Part shown: positions 5,830 through 25,425 of the stretch, piece after piece
Numbering within the stretch: the first letter of the stretch is position 1
How the letters are laid out: each line of letters begins with the position of its first letter
From: a virus
Taxonomy: Duplodnaviria > Heunggongvirae > Uroviricota > Caudoviricetes
Reading direction: 5' to 3' (one strand)
IMG/VR virus record: IMGVR_UViG_2534682161_000019
Length of the DNA: 44,580 nucleotides
Position numbers and translations under genes: made by a program
The notes under the pieces: model-generated
Database searches by the model: none
Told to the model about the DNA's origin: nothing
Seen by the model: only the letters and a program-made list of their open reading frames with translations

Positions 5830-6406
5830 TATCGCGTCCTCAACAATGAATTTTGTGATGCGGTGCCTGGTGCCTCCAGGTGACGTTAACCAGTTAACAA
5901 TTAACGCCGGATACAGAGAATCCACCCATAACACTGTTTTTGGTTTTAACTGTTCCGCGTGCGCTGAGCCGCATTCACCGCATCACAAAATTCACTTTTA
6001 AAAAAGGGCGGCAGAGCAGTCACGGAGTAAAACTGATACCGCCAAATGTCACCAGAATATTGATAACAGAGGGCGTTGTAGCGGGGTTGTCACTTAAGCG
6101 TATGGTCAACCTGACAACCCGGTGTCCTCAACGGGGAAAGGCGTCCCTCCCACCCCCGCCATACTTACCGCCGCGCCATTTCGCGGGTCGCCACAACCGG
6201 AAGCGCACGGTCGAATTAAATTTAACGACACCGTGCAGTGAGACGAACTTCGCCGTGCGCTTTCGTGTTGTGTGCCTGCTTTTAACCACGTCAGGCGAGG
6301 TGGTTTCCGTCATTCCCCAACGACAGGAAATCTGTATAATCTGGGTATCCCCAACGATCCAAGGAAATCATATGACAGAGCAAAGAGCACAAGCAGGTGA
6401 TGGTGT

Positions 6407-7771: not shown

Positions 7772-8191
7772 TTAAGAGGCTTTTTGTTTTTTCTTTCGTG
7801 CTAACTCTTCGTAAATTGCATTGTACTTTTGTTTTTTCTCCTCAAGAGTTTTTAAAAGTTCATCTGTCTCACTGTCAGGGAGCTCGTCCAGAAGATCAAT
7901 GATGATTTTTTGTCTTGGATTTAACTCCTGATAGAAACGTACCTGTCCACTTTCTTCTGTATCCTCTCCCAAAAGATAGGTTGGTGTTGTTCCAATGAGT
8001 GTTGCTAATTCCCTTAATTTCTCTCGGCGAGGAATTGTTTCGCCATTAAACCATTTGCTAACCGCTTTTGGTGTTAATTTCATTCGACGGGCAATTTCTG
8101 CCTGCCTTCCATGTTGTTCATAACCAGCGTTTTCACAGGCTAGCGCAAGCCTACTGGCGAACTCTTTACGCGCTTTATCTTCATGAACCAT
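7772..8191 (-). CDS. prophage repressor, HTH XRE family (RacR/DicA-like, no S24 peptidase domain)
   Basis: 139 aa; N-terminal HTH (...QAEIARRMKLTPKAVSKWFNGETIP...); acidic C-terminus; divergent from a Cro-like gene. Confidence 0.7.
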   Translation of the reverse strand: MVHEDKARKEFASRLALACENAGYEQHGRQAEIARRMKLTPKAVSKWFNGETIPRREKLRELATLIGTTPTYLLGEDTEESGQVRFYQELNPRQKIIIDLLDELPDSETDELLKTLEEKKQKYNAIYEELARKKKQKAS

Positions 8192-14325: not shown

Positions 14326-14523
14326 AATGGCTTTTGTGTGCATGTTAAATAAAGAATACATGGCATCATTTAATGATGTCATGTGTAACGAGCGAAAAGC
14401 CTTTTGAACGGTTTTCATAAGTTATATTGAAAGATAAAATTGCTGCGGGTGCTTGAGGCTATCTGCCTCAGGCATGAACACCAACGGCAGATAGATAAAA
14501 GCCCCACCCGACTATAAATCGAA

Positions 14524-14742
14524 GTGAGGCCCCTATATGCTCGTCACATACAGATTGCCTCTTACGGACCGAAAGGTCAAGGAGAAGCAGGCTATGAAGC
14601 AGCAAAAGGCGATGCTAATCGCCCTGATCGTCATCTGTTTAACCGTCATAGTGACGGCACTGGTAACGAGGAAAGACCTCTGCGAGGTACGAATCCGAAC
14701 CGGCCAGACGGAGGTCGCTGTCTTCACAGCTTACGAACCTGA
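14524..14742 (+). CDS. mok: mok-like overlapping reading frame of the hok toxin locus
   Basis: 72-aa ORF starting upstream of hok and overlapping it in another frame, ending 7 nt before the hok stop. Confidence 0.5.
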   Translation: MRPLYARHIQIASYGPKGQGEAGYEAAKGDANRPDRHLFNRHSDGTGNEERPLRGTNPNRPDGGRCLHSLRT

Positions 14743-16257: not shown

Positions 16258-16629
16258 ATGCGTATAGAGTTTGTTTTGCCTTACCCGCCGACGGTGAACA
16301 CCTACTGGCGACGTCATGGCAGCACATATTTTGTATCAAAAGCCGGTGAGCGTTATCGCCGTGATGTGGCGTTCATTGTTCGCCAGCAGCGGTTGAAATT
16401 AAACCTCTCCGGAAGGCTGGCGATAAAGATTATTGCAGAGCCACCGGATAAGCGCCGTCGTGACCTGGACAATATCCTGAAAGCACTGCTGGATGCGCTG
16501 ACACATGCGGGGCTGCTTATAGACGACGACCAGTTTGATGAAATCAATATTGTGCATGGTCTGCCTGTTTGCGGTGGGCGACTGGGTGTGAATATATTCG
16601 TAATAAGAGGATGTAATGATGTTGCGTGA
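16258..16629 (+). CDS. rusA: RusA-family Holliday junction resolvase
   Basis: 123 aa; [12 protein letters not shown]...[27 protein letters not shown] matches RusA (PPS.N.YYR...RRRDLDN...DAL..AG...DD). Confidence 0.8.
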
Positions 16630-16990
16630 TATTCAGCTGGTTATGGAGCGGTGGGGAGCATGGGCAGCAAGTAATCATGAAGATGTAACATGGTCCTCGA
16701 TAGCTGCTGGTTTTAAAGGATTAATCCCGACTAAAGTGAAATCACGTCCTCAGTGTTCTGATGATGACGCCATGATAATTTGTGGCTGTATGGCACGATT
16801 AAACAAGAATAATCAGTATTTGCACGATTTGTTGGTGGATTATTACGTAGGTGGAATGACATTTATGGCTCTTGCACGTAAGCATAGATGTTCTGATGGG
16901 CTTATTGGTAAAAGACTTTATAAAGCTGAAGGTATTATTGAAGGAATGCTTATGGCTCTGAATGTCCGGTTAGATATGGATATGCGGTAG
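16616..16990 (+). CDS. Q: late-gene antiterminator Q (phage 82/21-type, Quu-like)
   Basis: 124 aa; [18 protein letters not shown]...[14 protein letters not shown]...LLVDYYV... resembles E. coli prophage Quu antiterminators; immediately upstream of the late region. Confidence 0.7.
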
Positions 16991-18596: not shown

Positions 18597-19146
18597 ATGG
18601 CTAATACTGTAAAAATATCCAGCTGCGAGTTAATCAACGCTGATTTCCTGGAATTTATCCAGACCTTACCGGAAAACTCTGTCGATCTGATAGTCACAGA
18701 CCCGCCATACTTTAAAGTGAAGCCCGAGGGCTGGGATAACCAGTGGAAGGGCGACGATGATTACCTGAAATGGCTGGATCAGTGTCTGGCGCAGTTCTGG
18801 TGGGTATTAAAACCCGCCGGAAGTCTTTACCTGTTCTGTGGTCATCGCCTGGCATCTGATATCGAAATCATGATGCGTGAGCGCTTTAATGTGCTGAACC
18901 ACATTATCTGGGCGAAGCCGTCCGGGCGCTGGAACGGGTGCAACAAGGAAAGCCTGCGGGCGTATTTCCCGGCAACAGAGCGCATTCTGTTTGCGTCCGG
19001 GAGATTTGGTTGCCGACTTTTTCATGGGGTCAGGCTCCATAATAAAAGCAGCGCTGGCACTTGGGGGCATGGCGTTAAGCGTTGAACTTGAGTCTGAACG
19101 TTTTGAGCATACTGCGGGTGAAATAGTTACGTTGGCAGATAATTAA
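18597..19146 (+). CDS. DNA methyltransferase (N6-adenine/N4-cytosine type, DPPY motif), apparently frameshifted or internally deleted
   Basis: N-terminal frame contains TDPPYF; the SAM-binding motif (PGDLVADFFMGSGS...ALALGG...) is in a different frame ending at 19146; the combined length is short for this family. Confidence 0.55.
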
Positions 19147-19260
19147 ATCACTGCACAATAAGCTAATGAATTGATGTTAACTTCCCGTATTATTGGGCTA
19201 CTTCGAGAGAAAGGTGCATTACATTTCAGATGTATTTCATCTCACATCCGAGGAAGCAAT

Positions 19261-19336
<76 letters not shown>

Positions 19337-19339
19337 TAT

Positions 19340-19414
<75 letters not shown>

Positions 19415-19546
19415 ACATTTGATAGAGGCGTATTGCAGCACTGGCGTATTTTTATTACGTGAGGACAGATTGTTTTTTTAGGAACTCTCAGTTTTCGGGC
19501 TATGTTTTGAGGCCAGGTTAGCCTCAGTGCTGATTTTTTACAATAC

Positions 19547-19615
19547 CGGAATGGTGCATTATTGGTTGGGTTACGTAGTGAGCCCTATGGCAGGTACCGG
19601 TGATGCACCATTCCG
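19547..19615. other. long imperfect hairpin (13-bp stem, ~43-nt loop) downstream of the tRNAs
   Basis: CGGAATGGTGCAT (19547-19559) pairs with ATGCACCATTCCG (19603-19615). Confidence 0.4.
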
Positions 19616-19694
19616 ATGTTGTAAACATCACTTAGAGTAAGTTATAGAACAATTTGCTACTAAGTAAAACCTGAAACCTGGGAATACATCTTTA

Positions 19695-19718
19695 CCGCCA
19701 CACTTGGCGGTTTTTTTT
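19695..19718 (+). terminator. rho-independent terminator (possible tR-prime-like late terminator)
   Basis: CCGCCA-CACT-TGGCGG hairpin followed by TTTTTTTT. Confidence 0.6.
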
Positions 19719-19816
19719 ATTCTGTTTTTTCATGGCTCGCTACGGCGGCCTTTTTCATGTATACCCTGGCGGTTATTATGATGGCTTGTTTATTTGTTCA
19801 TAAGAGGATTGATACA

Positions 19817-20299
19817 GTGGTCACTTATGCTGATATCAGGGCAAAACGGGCCGAAATACTGAAAGCTAAGCAGGAATACATTCAGCGGTTGCGGGATACA
19901 GCCACAAGGCTGGTCAATGCCTATGAGTCTTCACTGGCGTTGCCGGAACTGCAATGGCGAGACATTGAGGGTGAGTTACATCCTTACGTCTATATTTGCT
20001 TCAATGGCTTCAGTGTCCGACCGGAGGATTTGCAGGTAGACCTTAGGGACGGAGTTGCGTTTAAATTATACACAGTTGTTGATGACAATCCCCGCCAGTC
20101 TGCAAGTATGGAAGTTGGTGTAAAGATTGTGCTGCTTGATGGCGATAACCTGACGATTTCAGTTAATGGTTATGGGGACAGAACATTTTCGCACGTAGAT
20201 ACCGATGCAAAAATTAACGAGGTATGCGAGTTCATCAAAGACAGTATTTTAATGTCGATGAATGATGTGAATTTGGCAAAGCATCTCTGCCGAAGATAG
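19817..20299 (+). CDS. hypothetical protein (moron at the position stx occupies in Stx phages)
   Basis: ORF track 19757-20299; GTG at 19817 lies 9 nt after an AAGAGG RBS; no recognised motif. Confidence 0.4.
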   Translation: MVTYADIRAKRAEILKAKQEYIQRLRDTATRLVNAYESSLALPELQWRDIEGELHPYVYICFNGFSVRPEDLQVDLRDGVAFKLYTVVDDNPRQSASMEVGVKIVLLDGDNLTISVNGYGDRTFSHVDTDAKINEVCEFIKDSILMSMNDVNLAKHLCRR

Positions 20300-20509
20300 A
20301 AGGCAGGAGTCGTAAAAAGGAATCGTTCGAAAATCTCAGAATCACCAGGCTGCGCATTTGCGTGGCCTTTTTTGTATCCGCGCCACGCCCGGCGCATATC
20401 AAAAACCACAGAGCCTTTCAGGGGTGAGCTTACGGGATGGTCAGTGTGACTTTCTCTGTGGGCTGGTCACCCCCGGGCGCAGGCTCACCCACTAAAAGGA
20501 AAAGTCACG

Positions 20510-20935
20510 ATGTTTGGTATTTTCAAAAAGAAAACACGCAAGGCCATTACCGAAGTGAAGAAGATGGAGAACCGCGACGCAGTGGAGGCGACCGTCTGGG
20601 GTGCGTATTCCATTGCATACGCTGACGACACCTGTGACTCGAAAGAAATCGCGGTACTGGAGAAAACCATTGCAGCACTTCCTGCCTTTGCGCCGTTCTC
20701 CGGTGAGATTGCACAAATGAGTGCAAATATCCGCGCCCGTTATGAAGCGTCGCCGCGCTCTGCCAATGCTGAAGCCCTTCGCCAGCTGGCTGATGTCGCC
20801 GGTACTGATGACGCAGTGAATGTGCTGTGCCTGTGTCTGGATATTGCAGACCAGGATGGCATTGGGCCGGAGGAAGAAGTACAGCTCAAGAAAATTGCTC
20901 AGGCGCTTCAGTTACCGCTGGAGCAGTACCTGTGA
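20510..20935 (+). CDS. TerB-like (tellurite-resistance TerB domain) protein
   Basis: 141 aa; layout ...AYSIAYADDTCDSKEIAVLE... and ...DIADQDGIGPEEEVQLKKIAQALQL... resembles the two TerB repeat units (ADG..S.EE / SDG.FDDDEK...IA..LG). Confidence 0.5.
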   Translation: MFGIFKKKTRKAITEVKKMENRDAVEATVWGAYSIAYADDTCDSKEIAVLEKTIAALPAFAPFSGEIAQMSANIRARYEASPRSANAEALRQLADVAGTDDAVNVLCLCLDIADQDGIGPEEEVQLKKIAQALQLPLEQYL

Positions 20936-21084
20936 AAAGTGCGCGCCTTGTACTGGCTGCCATCCTGCTGTTTCTGGTAGTGGTGGTGGATTTTACCGGA
21001 CGGCTGATGTCGGTACTGGCAGATGGTGTGCTGGTGGTGATGGTGTTGGTCGTGCTCCGGCCTTTACTGCGCAAATCTGAATAA
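20932..21084 (+). CDS. hypothetical small hydrophobic peptide overlapping the TerB-like stop
   Basis: GTG at 20932 overlaps the TGA of the upstream gene (GTGA); 50-aa product VKSARLVLAAILLFLVVVVDFTGRLMSVLADGVLVVMVLVVLRPLLRKSE. Confidence 0.3.
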   Translation: MKSARLVLAAILLFLVVVVDFTGRLMSVLADGVLVVMVLVVLRPLLRKSE

Positions 21085-21195
21085 CACCACGCAAAAGGCA
21101 TCTGCGGGTGCCTTTGATTGGGTGTTGTTTTTACGGGCCGCTGGTGGCCTTTTTTGTTTCCATTATACAACGCCCGCATCTGCGAGGTGGGGGTT

Positions 21196-21411
21196 ATGAA
21201 ATCCATGGACAAAATTTCAACGGGCATTGCCTATGGCACCTCCGCAGGCAGTGCTGGCTACTGGTTTTTACAGTGGCTTGATCAGGTCAGTCCGTCACAG
21301 TGGGCTGCGATTGGTGTATTAGGGAGTCTGGTTCTGGGCTTCCTGACTTATCTGACAAATCTGTACTTCAAAATAAGAGAAGACAGAAGAAAGGCTGCGA
21401 GAGGTGAATAA
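21196..21411 (+). CDS. S: pinholin S21-type holin with dual-start motif (antiholin/holin)
   Basis: 71 aa [71 protein letters not shown]; matches phage 21 S21 as I recall it; Met1 and Met4 give the two starts. Confidence 0.85.
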
Positions 21412-21908
21412 TGCCTCCATCATTACGAAAAGCCGTTGCTGCTGCTATTGGTGGCGGGGCTATTGCTATAGCATCTGTGTTAATCACTGGTCCAGGTGGT
21501 AACGATGGTCTGGAAGGTGTCAGTTACATACCATACAAAGATATTGTTGGTGTATGGACTGTATGCCACGGACACACCGGAAAAGACATCATGCTCGGTA
21601 AAACGTATACCGAAGCAGAATGCAAAGCCCTCCTGAATAAAGACCTTTCCACGGTCGCCAGACAAATTACCCCGTACATCAAAGTCGATATACCAGAAAC
21701 AACGCGCGGCGCTCTTTACTCATTCGTCTATAACGTGGGTGCTGGAAATTTCAGAACATCGACTCTTCTTCGCAAAATAAACCAGGGTGATATCAAAGGC
21801 GCATGTGATCAGCTACGGCGCTGGACATACGCTGGCGGTAAGCAATGGAAAGGGCTGATGACCCGTCGTGATATTGAGCGTGAAGTCTGTTTGTGGGGGC
21901 AGCAATGA
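21411..21908 (+). CDS. R: SAR endolysin (phage 21 R-type lysozyme, T4-lysozyme fold)
   Basis: 165 aa; N-terminal signal-anchor-release domain ([23 protein letters not shown]) then catalytic ...[26 protein letters not shown]... Confidence 0.85.
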
Positions 21909-22372
21909 GCAGAGTAACCGCGATTATCTCCGCTCTGATTATCTGCATCGTCGTCTGTCTGTCGTGGGCGGTCAATCATTACCGTGATAACGCCATCGCC
22001 TACAAAGAACAGCGTGATAAAAAAGTCAGTGAGCTGAAGCAGGCGACTGCCACCATCGCTGACATGCAGCAGCGTCAGCGTGATGTTGCTGCGCTCGATG
22101 CAAAGTACTCGAGAGAATTAGCCAATGCGCAAGCTGAAAATGAAACTCTGCGTGCTGATGTTACCGCTGGTCGTAAGCGCCTGCGGATCAACGCCACCTG
22201 TCCAGGCTCCGTGCGTGAAGCCACCGCCACCGCCCGCGTGGGCAATGATGCCAGCGTCGAACTCTCTCCAGTTGCTGGACGAAACGTTCTCGGTATCAGA
22301 GACGGAATCATCAGCGACCAGGCAGCATTGAGAACGCTTCAGGAATATATCCGTACTCAGTGCCTGAAATAG
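21905..22372 (+). CDS. Rz: i-spanin Rz
   Basis: N-terminal TM helix then coiled-coil-rich periplasmic domain; ATG at 21905 preceded by a GGGGG RBS (track begins at the upstream GTG 21893). Confidence 0.8.
22125..22331 (+). CDS. Rz1: o-spanin Rz1 (lipoprotein embedded in the +1 frame of Rz)
   Basis: [22 protein letters not shown]... lipobox LVVSAC; proline-rich mature region (PPPPPAW); fully nested in Rz. Confidence 0.8.
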
Positions 22373-22828: not shown

Positions 22829-23305
22829 ATGGACGGCGAGCTGAAAAATATGAAGTTAAATATTAATCAACTGGCAGCCCTTTCAGGCCTGCACCGGCAG
22901 ACCGTTACCGCAAGAATGGCGGATGTTCCTCTTGCTCCGGGCAGTAATGAGAAGAAAAAACTTTATCTCCTGACGGACCTGATTACTGCGCTGCTGGCAA
23001 AAACACCATCTACCGAAGATGAGGAGATGAATCCACACGATCGCAAGGCATGGTATCAGTCCGAGCGCGAGCGTCTTAAATTTCAGCATGAAACTGTTCA
23101 GCTTGTCCCTGTCAGTGATGTCAGGCGGTCGTTTTCCGTCGTGGTGAAAGCCATTGTGCAGATACTGGAAACCTGGCCTGACAGGCTGGAGAGGGACAGG
23201 GGGTGGACTGCATCACAACTGAACGAAGTGCAGATCGTTGTTGATGAGATCCGTGACACGCTGGAAAAGGCAGTGATTGCCTGCTGTGATGAGGCTGATA
23301 TGTGA
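22829..23305 (+). CDS. terminase small subunit (Nu1-like position, N-terminal HTH)
   Basis: 158 aa; ATG 5 nt after GGAGGAGG; N-terminal LNINQLAALSGLHRQTVTARMADVP; immediately precedes and overlaps the gpA-like terminase. Confidence 0.65.
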   Translation: MDGELKNMKLNINQLAALSGLHRQTVTARMADVPLAPGSNEKKKLYLLTDLITALLAKTPSTEDEEMNPHDRKAWYQSERERLKFQHETVQLVPVSDVRRSFSVVVKAIVQILETWPDRLERDRGWTASQLNEVQIVVDEIRDTLEKAVIACCDEADM

Positions 23306-25425
23306 ATCCGGTTAACGAGTGCCATAGCCGCGCATCCGATATCTGGCGCGAAGTGGCCTCGCTGTTTCGCCCGCCTGGCCGGTTACCAGTAGCGGAAGCC
23401 ATCAGGCGTTATATGCGGGTACCACGGGGAGCCAACACTTCAGGTCCGTGGGAGTCATCGCTGACGCCCTATATGATTGACCCCATTAATACATTATCAG
23501 CCCGTGAATATGACGCGGTGGTGTTTGTCGGACCGGCGCGAACCGGGAAAACCGAAGGGCTGATTGATGGCTGGATTGTGTACGGCATCATCTGTGATCC
23601 GGCGGATATGCTGGTGGTGCAGATGACTGAGACGAAGGCGCGTGAGCATTCCAGAACGCGTCTTTCCAGGACGTTTCGCCACAGTCCGGAGGTCAGTAAG
23701 CGCCTCAGTCCTTCCCGTAATGACAACAACGTCCACGACAAAATGTTTCTTGACGGCTCATTCCTGAAAATTGGCTGGCCGTCGATCACCGTATTTTCCT
23801 CCTCGGATTACCGTCGTGTGGCGCTGACGGATTATGACCGTTTTCCTGAGAACGTCGACGGTGAAGGGGATGCCTTCACGCTGGCATCAAAGCGTACCAC
23901 CACCTTTATGTCCTCGGGGATGACCCTGGTCGAAAGTTCGCCCGGGCGGGATATCACCGATACCAAATGGCGTTGTGGTGGCGCACATGAGGCACCGCCA
24001 ACAACGGGGATCCTGTCACTGTATAACCGGGGAGACCGCCGCCGGTGGTACTGGCCGTGTCCGCACTGCGGGGAATATTTTCAGCCGGTGATGGATAACA
24101 TGACCGGTTACCGGAATAACCCTGATTTTGTGGCTGCCGGGCAGGCGGCCCGCCTGATGTGTCCGCACTGCCGCGGCCTGATTGCTCCGGAACAGAAGCG
24201 TGAACTGAATAACCAGGGGATCTGGCTGCGGGAAGGCGAACGGGCAGCGGCGGATGGCAGTATTACCGGAACCCCTCGAAATTCCAGAATAGCAAGTTTC
24301 TGGATGGAGGGGCCGGCAGCGGCGTTTCAGACCTGGGAACAACTGATTTTTAAGCTGCTGGCGGCAGAAGAAGAGTATGAGCGAACCGGCAGTGAAGAGA
24401 CCCTGAAAGCGGTGGTAAACACCGATATCGGACGACCCTATCTGCCCCGTTCAGCCACGGAACAGCGTAAAAGTGAACTGCTTGAACAGCGTGCCGAGCC
24501 GTTTCCCCGGCGATCTGTGCCGGATGGTGTGCGTTTTATTGAGGCAACGGTTGACGTACAGGGCGGTAAAAATCGCCGTTTTGTTGTGCAGATCACCGGA
24601 TACGGAGAACAGGGGGAACGCTGGATTGTTGATCGCTACAACATCCGGCATTCACTGCGCTGCAGTCCCAATGGTGAAAGTCTGCCGGTTGATCCGGCGG
24701 CATATCCGGAGGACTGGGATTTGTTGCTGACGGATGTGCTCCATAAAACATGGCCGCTGGCTTCTGATCCGGATGTGCGCATGCGTCTGATGGCCATGGC
24801 GGTGGATACGGGAGGGGAAGCCGGGGTGACAGATAATGCCTATCGTTTCTGGCGTCGTTGCCGGAGTGACGGACTGGGCAACAGGGTGTTTCTGTTCAAG
24901 GGGGATGGTCTTCGCCGTGACAGGCTGATTAACCGTACCTTCCCGGATAATACCGGCAGAAGTGCCCGCCGTGCCAGAGCCAGTGGCGATGTCGCGCTGT
25001 GGCTGGTTCAGACGGATGCGTTTAAGGACCGTGTAAATAATGCCCTGTGGCGTGACACACCAGGGCCGAACTATATCCACTTTCCCGACTGGCTGGGGCG
25101 GTGGTTTTACGATGAGCTGACCTATGAAGAGCGCGGCAGTGACGGAAAATGGCGAAAACCGGGCAGGGGCGCTAACGAGGCGTTTGACCTGCTGGTGTAT
25201 GCGGATGCGCTTGCCGTTCTGCATGGTTACGAAAAGATCCGCTGGCCCTCCGCACCGGACTGGGCACAGCGGGAAACGTGGCTCGTTTTTCCGCAGGAGC
25301 GTTCTGGTGAAACGGCATCCCCGGAACTGACGGCCGGGGCAGAAAAACGCCGTCGTCGGAAGAAAAAACTGCGGACGGAGCGTGCGGAAGATAATCCATG
25401 GATAACATCAGGAGGCTGGTTGTGA
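23302..25425 (+). CDS. A: terminase large subunit (lambda gpA family)
   Basis: 707 aa; Walker A VFVGPARTGKTE; paired CPHCG motifs (WYWPCPHCGEYF, LMCPHCRGLI) as in lambda gpA. Confidence 0.9.
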   Translation: MNPVNECHSRASDIWREVASLFRPPGRLPVAEAIRRYMRVPRGANTSGPWESSLTPYMIDPINTLSAREYDAVVFVGPARTGKTEGLIDGWIVYGIICDPADMLVVQMTETKAREHSRTRLSRTFRHSPEVSKRLSPSRNDNNVHDKMFLDGSFLKIGWPSITVFSSSDYRRVALTDYDRFPENVDGEGDAFTLASKRTTTFMSSGMTLVESSPGRDITDTKWRCGGAHEAPPTTGILSLYNRGDRRRWYWPCPHCGEYFQPVMDNMTGYRNNPDFVAAGQAARLMCPHCRGLIAPEQKRELNNQGIWLREGERAAADGSITGTPRNSRIASFWMEGPAAAFQTWEQLIFKLLAAEEEYERTGSEETLKAVVNTDIGRPYLPRSATEQRKSELLEQRAEPFPRRSVPDGVRFIEATVDVQGGKNRRFVVQITGYGEQGERWIVDRYNIRHSLRCSPNGESLPVDPAAYPEDWDLLLTDVLHKTWPLASDPDVRMRLMAMAVDTGGEAGVTDNAYRFWRRCRSDGLGNRVFLFKGDGLRRDRLINRTFPDNTGRSARRARASGDVALWLVQTDAFKDRVNNALWRDTPGPNYIHFPDWLGRWFYDELTYEERGSDGKWRKPGRGANEAFDLLVYADALAVLHGYEKIRWPSAPDWAQRETWLVFPQERSGETASPELTAGAEKRRRRKKKLRTERAEDNPWITSGGWL

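Follow-up and report, generated by a model that had tools for sequence, protein, structure and literature searches.

The closest described relatives of the locus examined here are the tciA-tciB-tciC operon of phage P1 (NC_005856 70233-70929) and the terZABCDE(F) clusters of IncHI2 R478 and Klebsiella pneumoniae, which include the TerB protein of Protein Data Bank (PDB) entry 2JXU. TerB is widespread, and its biochemical role is still unclear decades after the ter cluster was described. The cluster has been linked to phage inhibition and colicin resistance (PMC8123226), K. pneumoniae requires terC to resist phages (PMC12054061), and Iyer et al. proposed that Ter components encoded by phages, among them the TerB that stands alone in Erwinia jumbo phages, are directed against superinfecting phages (PMC7824862). 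In P1, transcripts of the tci genes were detected during P1vir infection, and the same preprint lists these genes under "cell division-control genes" without any test of that assignment (bioRxiv 10.64898/2025.12.28.696737). The operon is variable and often lost in P1-like plasmids, about half of one subgroup being without it (PMC9603915). Here we analyzed a gene pair at positions 20510 to 21084 of a 44,580-nucleotide (nt) stretch of viral DNA (IMG/VR record IMGVR_UViG_2534682161_000019, Caudoviricetes), referred to below as the window, and found that it is almost certainly the tciA-tciB pair first named in P1.

The window copy of tciA is 79.5% identical to P1 tciA at the nucleotide level and 85% identical at the amino acid (aa) level, and the pair has the P1 layout, a TciA orthologue followed by a DUF3927 gene whose start overlaps the tciA stop. 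The first-pass annotation of this stretch had described a 141-aa open reading frame (ORF), an ORF of about 50 aa that is highly hydrophobic, a GTGA overlap between them, and a distance of about 110 nt to the start of an S21-type holin gene; each of these lies where it was placed, with exactly 111 nt between the tciB stop and the holin start. The GTG of tciB and the TGA of tciA have TG in common, and each gene is preceded by a ribosome binding site-like motif (AAGGA 9 nt 5′ of the tciA ATG and GGAG 8 nt 5′ of the tciB GTG). The pair is already named and widely annotated and is not an unrecognized feature. Escherichia coli N96 carries a 100% identical copy of 20400 to 21200, in which RefSeq names the two products "tellurite resistance TerB family protein" and "DUF3927 family protein"; the words "tellurite resistance" in that name derive from homology, are weakly founded, and have no support from the gene context. 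When searched at relaxed sensitivity, 1355 of 5426 complete E. coli genomes, about a quarter, contained the pair, at a median of two and up to eight places per genome (3028 chromosomal and 390 plasmid locations). This makes it one of the commonest late-region accessory gene pairs in E. coli prophages, with several copies per O157:H7 genome. TerB homologues were also present in 91 deposited phage genomes.

TciA is a soluble TerB-fold protein with an internally duplicated helical domain and two acidic (A)DGxxxxxE motifs. The resemblance to TerB, which had been proposed from the letters alone, held up against the Pfam hidden Markov model PF05099 (27.3 bits, above the cut-off of 24.4; E = 4.8e-6; two stretches), and the protein matched PHROG 632 from end to end (1.6e-63). 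Searched exhaustively, a set of 1.84 billion cluster representatives yielded 153 relatives, of which a few were close and the remainder were 140 to 150 aa long with 28 to 40% identity. A 49-member family profile with the window protein as its first sequence aligned over residues 15 to 149 with K. pneumoniae TerB (2jxu_A, E = 4.3e-25), and a single-sequence phmmer search of TciA against the PDB did not find 2JXU; a PNPase match from phmmer against the PDB (E about 0.006) was taken as spurious. The AlphaFold model (predicted local distance difference test [pLDDT], 83.9) consists of six helices, with residues 1 to 15 as a disordered tail, and its best structural matches were two TerB-like crystal structures, 2h5n and 2ou3. 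TciA thus combines a Pfam score above cut-off, homology to a solved TerB, and an all-helical fold in two halves. The two halves had been said to resemble TerB units, and they do so at the profile level: a profile-profile comparison of the N half with the C half, based on the 49-sequence alignment, gave a probability of 94.5% (E = 8e-8) and aligned two helices, each with the (A)DGxxxxxE motif, whereas BLASTP between the halves produced no alignment. NCBIfam gave no match for TciA or TciB.

Residues 1 to 19 of TciA form a basic tail with a net charge of +6 and the remainder an acidic core with a net charge of −12, and 52 columns are invariant in 32 sequences. Three cysteines (C42, C107, and C109) are invariant in the close TciA clade and not in the wider TerB family; they are encoded at 20633 to 20635 (C42) and 20828 to 20836 (C107 and C109, a CxC) and could form a thiol, metal, or tellurite-reactive site. 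A second allele class of TciA, with 41 to 43% aa identity and the N terminus MFG..KKFEKRDLA, lies between the same leader and a TciB in six loci (L013, L164, L167, L168, L178 from phage JLK-2012, and L180 from O157:H7) and is the one that O157:H7 prophages carry.

The small ORF is a genuine gene. Its product, TciB, matched Pfam DUF3927 (5e-13; 49 bits, cut-off 25) and the PHROG 1470 family "TciB-like" (1.9e-23); these were its only matches in Pfam and PHROGs, and no holin family was among them. With a grand average of hydropathy of 1.54 and 68% of its residues from the set AILMFVW, TciB shows two hydrophobic helices (residues 5 to 20 and 25 to 42) joined by a short DFTGR loop and flanked by basic ends. 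Nine diverse members share the invariant residues D20, F21, T22, S27, D31, G32, and P44. These features point to a hairpin whose two termini would be cytoplasmic and whose second helix would bury the conserved Asp-Gly. Among 90 copies there were 49 distinct nucleotide sequences, and the ratio of nonsynonymous to synonymous rates (dN/dS) against the window copy was about 0.1 to 0.5 in most comparisons, indicating purifying selection; against the P1 copy, the proportions of synonymous and nonsynonymous differences (pS and pN) were 0.72 and 0.37. The two hydrophobic peaks, the DUF3927 match, and the selection agree with the earlier reading of the ORF as a membrane peptide. The Prokaryotic Genome Annotation Pipeline (PGAP) places the ORF at the same coordinates. 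An 85-aa version in the same frame (GTG at 20827) was rejected: the 50-aa start is preferred because DUF3927 spans residues 4 to 48, P1 TciB begins at the tciA stop, GGAG precedes the GTG at 20932, and PGAP calls an identical start. A minus-strand ORF of 113 aa (20886 to 21227) was dismissed as spurious, since it runs antisense to a gene on which selection acts.

The two genes are linked in nearly every locus that we compared (90 loci seeded with TciA and 77 viral loci from IMG/VR seeded with TciB). A TciB-like ORF lay 3′ of TciA in all loci with downstream sequence except L070, where the ORF is disrupted, and all 89 junctions had a stop/start overlap (GTGA in 87, TGATG in two); the junction in the P1 record is TGATG. 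Co-occurrence analysis, named in the first-pass annotation as a check, bore out the pairing from the other side as well: in 77/77 TciB-seeded viral loci, the end of a TerB ORF coincided with the start of TciB. A tblastn search of a phage collection with TciB returned nothing, probably because of the low-complexity filter. The order TerB then DUF3927 extends to the virulent N4-like Salmonella phage FSL SP-076, Pseudomonas phage ZY21, and the lambdoid phage JLK-2012, with both Pfam families above cut-off in FSL SP-076 and ZY21; the corresponding small ORF of the jumbo Erwinia phage Caitlin scored below the DUF3927 cut-off (16 bits versus 25). A single contig encodes a natural in-frame TciA::TciB fusion of 196 aa (P0056), which is possibly a sequencing or indel artifact or else a viable fused form.

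The leader, tciA, tciB, and the flanking terminators together form a 0.8-kb cassette. When the window was aligned with related loci, the left ends of the homology blocks clustered at 20345 to 20380 and the right end was 21162 in 55 loci, some of which had an unrelated holin downstream. These ends coincide with two intrinsic terminators (Table 1), and the genes on both sides differ among loci. In its behavior the pair is a mobile accessory element, with discrete boundaries and a present/absent distribution among related phages, and to this extent the earlier description of a two-gene moron stands. The full definition, with a promoter and a terminator of its own, may not apply: a terminator is present (21135 to 21150), a consensus scan of 20369 to 20509, which may miss a weak or non-sigma-70 promoter, found no sigma-70-like promoter, and RNA-seq of a related locus had reads in uninduced cells. 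The tail of the upstream terminator, GTGGCCTTTTTTGTATCC, is repeated with one mismatch at 21144 to 21161. An 18-nt sequence, GTGGCCTTTTTTGT(A/T)TCC, is common to the terminator tails at 20362 to 20379 and 21144 to 21161, and this repeat could be the footprint of recombinational insertion at a terminator. A degraded remnant occurs in Ecol_AZ159 (L179, 2501 to 2742), where the leader directly precedes a truncated DUF3927 pseudogene with no obvious prophage around it and adjoins an IS200/IS605 transposase.

Within the cassette, the leader of about 130 nt is conserved beyond the genes that it precedes. It has 41 invariant columns over 35 distinct sequences and is 71 to 88% identical before TciA alleles whose coding sequences share only 53 to 56% identity. 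The consensus structure has 23 pairs, with 97.4% of cells paired and compensatory changes at four pairs; because the sequences are closely related, this covariation is suggestive and not proof. The single-sequence fold of 20340 to 20525, which includes the hairpin of the upstream terminator, had a z score of −2.5. The leader has no match in Rfam. It was present in 1261 of the 5426 E. coli genomes, nearly always on the chromosome, and is not found in P1, where homology to the window covers the tciA coding sequence only. The leader may be a cis-regulatory RNA that has not been described before, or else a linker for recombination.

In lambdoid phages the cassette usually lies before the lysis genes. 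A holin gene was downstream in 112 of 123 non-redundant lambdoid loci, within 300 nt in 96 of them. The holins belong to two unrelated families (S21-like and phrog_198) and the endolysins to four types (M15, GH108, GH19-like, and R21-type), and some prophages have a nanS-p esterase gene between tciB and the holin. Elsewhere the pair lies away from annotated lysis genes (P1, FSL SP-076, Caitlin, and ZY21). In P1 it is located between tRNA genes within the C1-controlled ban operon, with tciA between the Pban promoter and ban; in FSL SP-076 its neighbors are genes for dUTPase, replication, and an ATPase; and in Caitlin, where it is near the beginning of the genome record, it adjoins tRNA genes. 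tRNA genes lie about 0.1 to 1.1 kb from the pair in the window (19261 to 19414), P1, JLK-2012, O157:H7 prophages, Caitlin, and ZY21 (L001, L176, L177, L178, and L180 among the loci), an association that recurs over unrelated phages.

Table 1. Features of the window that bear on the tciA-tciB cassette and its surroundings
Feature	Coordinates	Strand	Remarks
Integrase	1570-2589	−	Lambda-like prophage window
Repressor-like helix-turn-helix protein	7772-8191	−	The window also has a replication region
RusA	16258-16629
Antiterminator Q	16616-16990	+	Pfam Phage_antitermQ, 2.8e-51; presumed source of read-through over the cassette
Upstream intrinsic terminator	20347-20378	+	Terminator scan: 9-bp stem and T run; left cassette boundary
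tciA leader	20378-20509	+	Conserved and structured
tciA	20510-20935	+	141-aa TerB-fold protein; ATG 20510, TGA 20933-20935
tciB	20932-21084	+	50-aa two-helix membrane peptide, DUF3927; GTG 20932, TAA 21082-21084
Downstream intrinsic terminator	21135-21161	+	Terminator scan; right cassette boundary, between tciB and holin
S21-type class II holin (pinholin)	21196-21411	+	Pfam Phage_holin_2_1, 8.6e-36; MKSM dual start
R21-type lysozyme	21411-21908	+	Pfam Phage_lysozyme, 5e-45
Rz	21893-22372	+	Phage_lysis, 3e-38
707-aa ORF	23302-25425		RefSeq: large terminase in the related strain N96

The window further contains a 4.2-kb accessory stretch with a CAAX-protease-like ORF, a truncated DNA methyltransferase ORF, tRNA-Thr, tRNA-Gly, a long hairpin, and a 180-aa protein, and a DUF1441 protein is among the genes after Rz. 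The methyltransferase ORF (18597 to 19085) matches only positions 1 to 105 of the 221 in the Pfam N6_N4_Mtase model, that is, its first half, and PGAP labels the N96 equivalent an incomplete pseudogene. The hairpin, of about 110 nt and very stable, occupies 19523 to 19635 between tRNA-Gly and a terminator at 19694 to 19711; the fold of 19500 to 19720 had a z score of −7.07, and Rfam gave only sub-threshold microRNA-like matches for it. Over 19000 to 21500, Rfam returned only the two tRNAs and sub-threshold microRNA-like matches on a hairpin. Elsewhere in the window there were RNA family matches to the STnc100 small RNA (sRNA) (273 to 465, 111.7 bits), the sok antitoxin RNA (14447 to 14596, 102.9 bits, which implies a hok/sok-type locus), and DicF (6006 to 6057, minus strand, 77 bits); the P1 tciA operon also has a dicF-like region. 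The STnc100 family is related to PasD1 and PasD2 of enteropathogenic E. coli (EPEC); PasD2 in strain E2348/69 begins about 40 nt past a DUF3927 stop codon, and the STnc100 sRNA of the window is at the far end of the prophage. On the minus strand of the spacer between tciB and the holin gene (21085 to 21195), a TATAAT box (about 21163 to 21168) precedes a pair of hairpins, of which the second has a short T run. This element has the place and orientation of PasA in EPEC prophages without sequence similarity to it, and the consensus scan made no promoter call at the TATAAT box. The spacer was considered as a site for PasA or PasC, both of which adjoin holins in EPEC prophages, and neither is present.

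Taken as a whole, the pair is best explained as a TerB protein and its membrane partner that form a complex active in the lytic phase, in protection or exclusion at the inner membrane; we give this account a probability of about 0.5. TciA and TciB would be made by translational coupling, as suggested by the GTGA overlap. They would then form one complex on the cytoplasmic face of the inner membrane, a location suggested by the hydropathy and charge distribution of TciB and the basic tail of TciA, with TciB as the membrane partner in the role that TerC has for TerB in ter operons. By analogy with the TerB-TerC complex (the TerC interactome, as cited in PMC11003894 and PMC12054061), such an arrangement is somewhat more probable than not. 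The cassette would be transcribed together with the late genes by Q-modified polymerase, and in P1 from Pban; because no promoter was found in the cassette, Q-dependent read-through is the most likely source. We infer that the pair is a lytic-phase accessory function and not a lysogen-benefit gene, since it occurs in virulent phages, has no promoter by scan, belongs to a C1-controlled operon in P1, and is represented among P1vir transcripts. More tentatively, and again by analogy, the physiological role may be a Ter-like protection of the membrane, taking the form of exclusion of superinfecting phages or of tolerance of pore-forming colicins and of membrane or metal stress. We regard that role as possible and somewhat doubtful, though likelier than a tellurite pump or a part in the lysis clock.

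Several observations weigh against this account. We found no experiment on the function of TciA or TciB in the literature, and tciA, tciB, and tciC were all non-essential in a P1 CRISPR interference screen (PMC10695390). In the AlphaFold2 model of the P0056 fusion, the TciB part had a pLDDT of only 45 to 73, too low for the model to show whether TciB docks on the TerB domain. DUF3927 also occurs without TerB, behind a 247-aa multi-pass membrane protein in prophage PP2 of EPEC E2348/69, and in uninduced cells of that strain this DUF3927 gene and its neighbors had 10 to 60 times as many reads as the holin (PMC8550237, table S2). These reads make some expression in the lysogen possible, so that strictly late-only expression is not established. 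Neither TciA, TciB, nor the upstream 180-aa protein had a PADLOC match at an E value of ≤1, and the phage-defence context that had been noted for TerB domains found no support here. The conserved leader, in turn, suggests regulation that the favored account does not explain. The E2348/69 locus (L174, 4130 to 5117; NC_011601, 740129 to 741116) has an 85-nt gap between the gene for the 247-aa protein and DUF3927, and the base means in the uninduced transcriptome were 226 and 37 for these genes and 3.5 for the holin (PMC8550237, table S2).

The position of the cassette invites the explanation, already raised in the first-pass annotation, that TciA-TciB modulates lysis timing: through an effect on the holin, or on the membrane potential by which the holin is triggered, it would delay lysis or make it sharper. 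The frequency with which a holin follows the pair in lambdoid loci, across both holin families and all four endolysin types, speaks for such a role, as does the character of TciB as a small two-helix membrane protein, like holins and antiholins. Adjacency to a holin is not universal, however: the pair is far from annotated lysis genes in P1, FSL SP-076, and Caitlin, so a dedicated lysis role is not the simplest reading. An intrinsic terminator separates tciB from the holin in the window, nanS-p intervenes in other prophages, TciB matches no holin family, and, the cassette ends being terminators, the position may be only a slot permissive for recombination. We consider a lysis-timing function improbable.

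No more probable is a lysogenic-conversion pair, expressed in the lysogen and conferring resistance to tellurite, colicins, or both on the host. The TerB homology, the high prevalence in pathogenic E. coli (up to 6 to 8 copies per genome), and the reads over the DUF3927 gene and its neighbors, and not over the holin, in uninduced E2348/69 favor it, and a terminator on each side is moron-like and would insulate the holin from transcription of the cassette. On the other hand, terB alone is insufficient for resistance, the smallest resistance clone cited in PMC11003894 being terBCDEF, and TerC-TerD has been described as the minimal functional unit (PMC12054061). A scan of the window ORFs, which was not exhaustive, revealed no terC or terD homologue, no promoter was called in the cassette, and the pair occurs in strictly virulent phages and, in P1, in a C1-repressed operon.

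Still less probable is a host-takeover factor that would block cell division or alter the handling of divalent metals (Zn and Mn) during infection. The words "inhibition of cell division" in the Tci name would fit it, as would the dicF-like region of the P1 tciA operon. The ter operon has been linked to filamentous growth of Yersinia pestis (PMC4633105), and in K. pneumoniae both Zn and Mn induce the operon, with terC contributing to resistance to these two metals (PMC12054061). TciA also retains the acidic motifs, to which its clade adds C42, C107, and C109. The case is, however, purely one of analogy, and no phenotype has been reported.

A more speculative proposal, to which we assign a low likelihood, makes the pair a minimal self-regulated Ter system in which the leader RNA would sense a membrane, metal, or stress cue and set the translation or stability of tciAB, and TciA-TciB would stabilize the energized inner membrane. 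The complex might then prevent premature triggering of a potential-sensitive holin by superinfecting phages, colicins, or abortive-infection systems. If true, this would tie TerB to lysis control in roughly one E. coli genome in four. That the pair is hitch-hiking DNA without current function, a recombination linker with chance ORFs, is very improbable: its non-essentiality in P1, its loss from about half of one P1-like subgroup, and the degraded remnants fit such a view, whereas both ORFs are under purifying selection (for TciB, also against the P1 copy), TciA keeps its 52 invariant columns, and the pair is retained in unrelated phage lineages.

The chief leads from this analysis are the conserved leader and the near-universal pairing of TerB with DUF3927 over unrelated phages. 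The phage version amounts to Ter reduced to two genes and offers a compact, tractable entry to TerB function. Should the pair affect phage exclusion, colicin tolerance, or lysis, that would matter for competition among prophages in pathogenic strains.

Among known systems, the window cassette resembles the late-region morons of lambdoid phages (stx, nanS-p, bor, and lom) in being bounded by terminators, variably present, and located in the interval from Q and the tRNA genes to the holin. O157:H7 has a Q-like gene, tRNA-Ile, tRNA-Arg, tciA, tciB, and nanS-p in this order, at the place where Stx phages carry stx. Unlike those morons, the cassette has no promoter of its own detectable by scan, and the pair is also carried by non-lambdoid and virulent phages. 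Compared with the TerB of terZABCDE(F) clusters, TciA is a full-length homologue of similar size and fold with the same duplicated motif, and it differs in lacking the TerC, TerD, TerE, TerZ, and TerA partners, its only partner being a 50-aa peptide. No other Ter family was found among the window ORFs in the scan mentioned above, and the neighbors of tciA are the gene for the 180-aa hypothetical protein, the DUF3927 gene, and the holin gene. The three invariant cysteines set the TciA clade apart from the wider TerB family, and TciA and 2JXU are too distant in a pairwise comparison for phmmer to match them. The pairs of the virulent phages (FSL SP-076, vB_EamM_Caitlin gp5-gp6, and ZY21) have the same gene order with little or no spacer, whereas their TciA identity is 40 to 65% and they are not beside annotated lysis genes. 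The closest system remains P1 tciA-tciB-tciC, which shares the start/stop overlap, a DUF3927 TciB with 44% identity, and upstream tRNA genes and a DNA methyltransferase gene (dmt in P1). Unlike P1, the window is without tciC and has a terminator after tciB; P1 TciC matched only the P1-like locus L011 by tblastn. The P1 pair belongs to the C1-controlled ban operon, whereas the window pair, with its leader, lies in a Q-dependent late region beside the holin.

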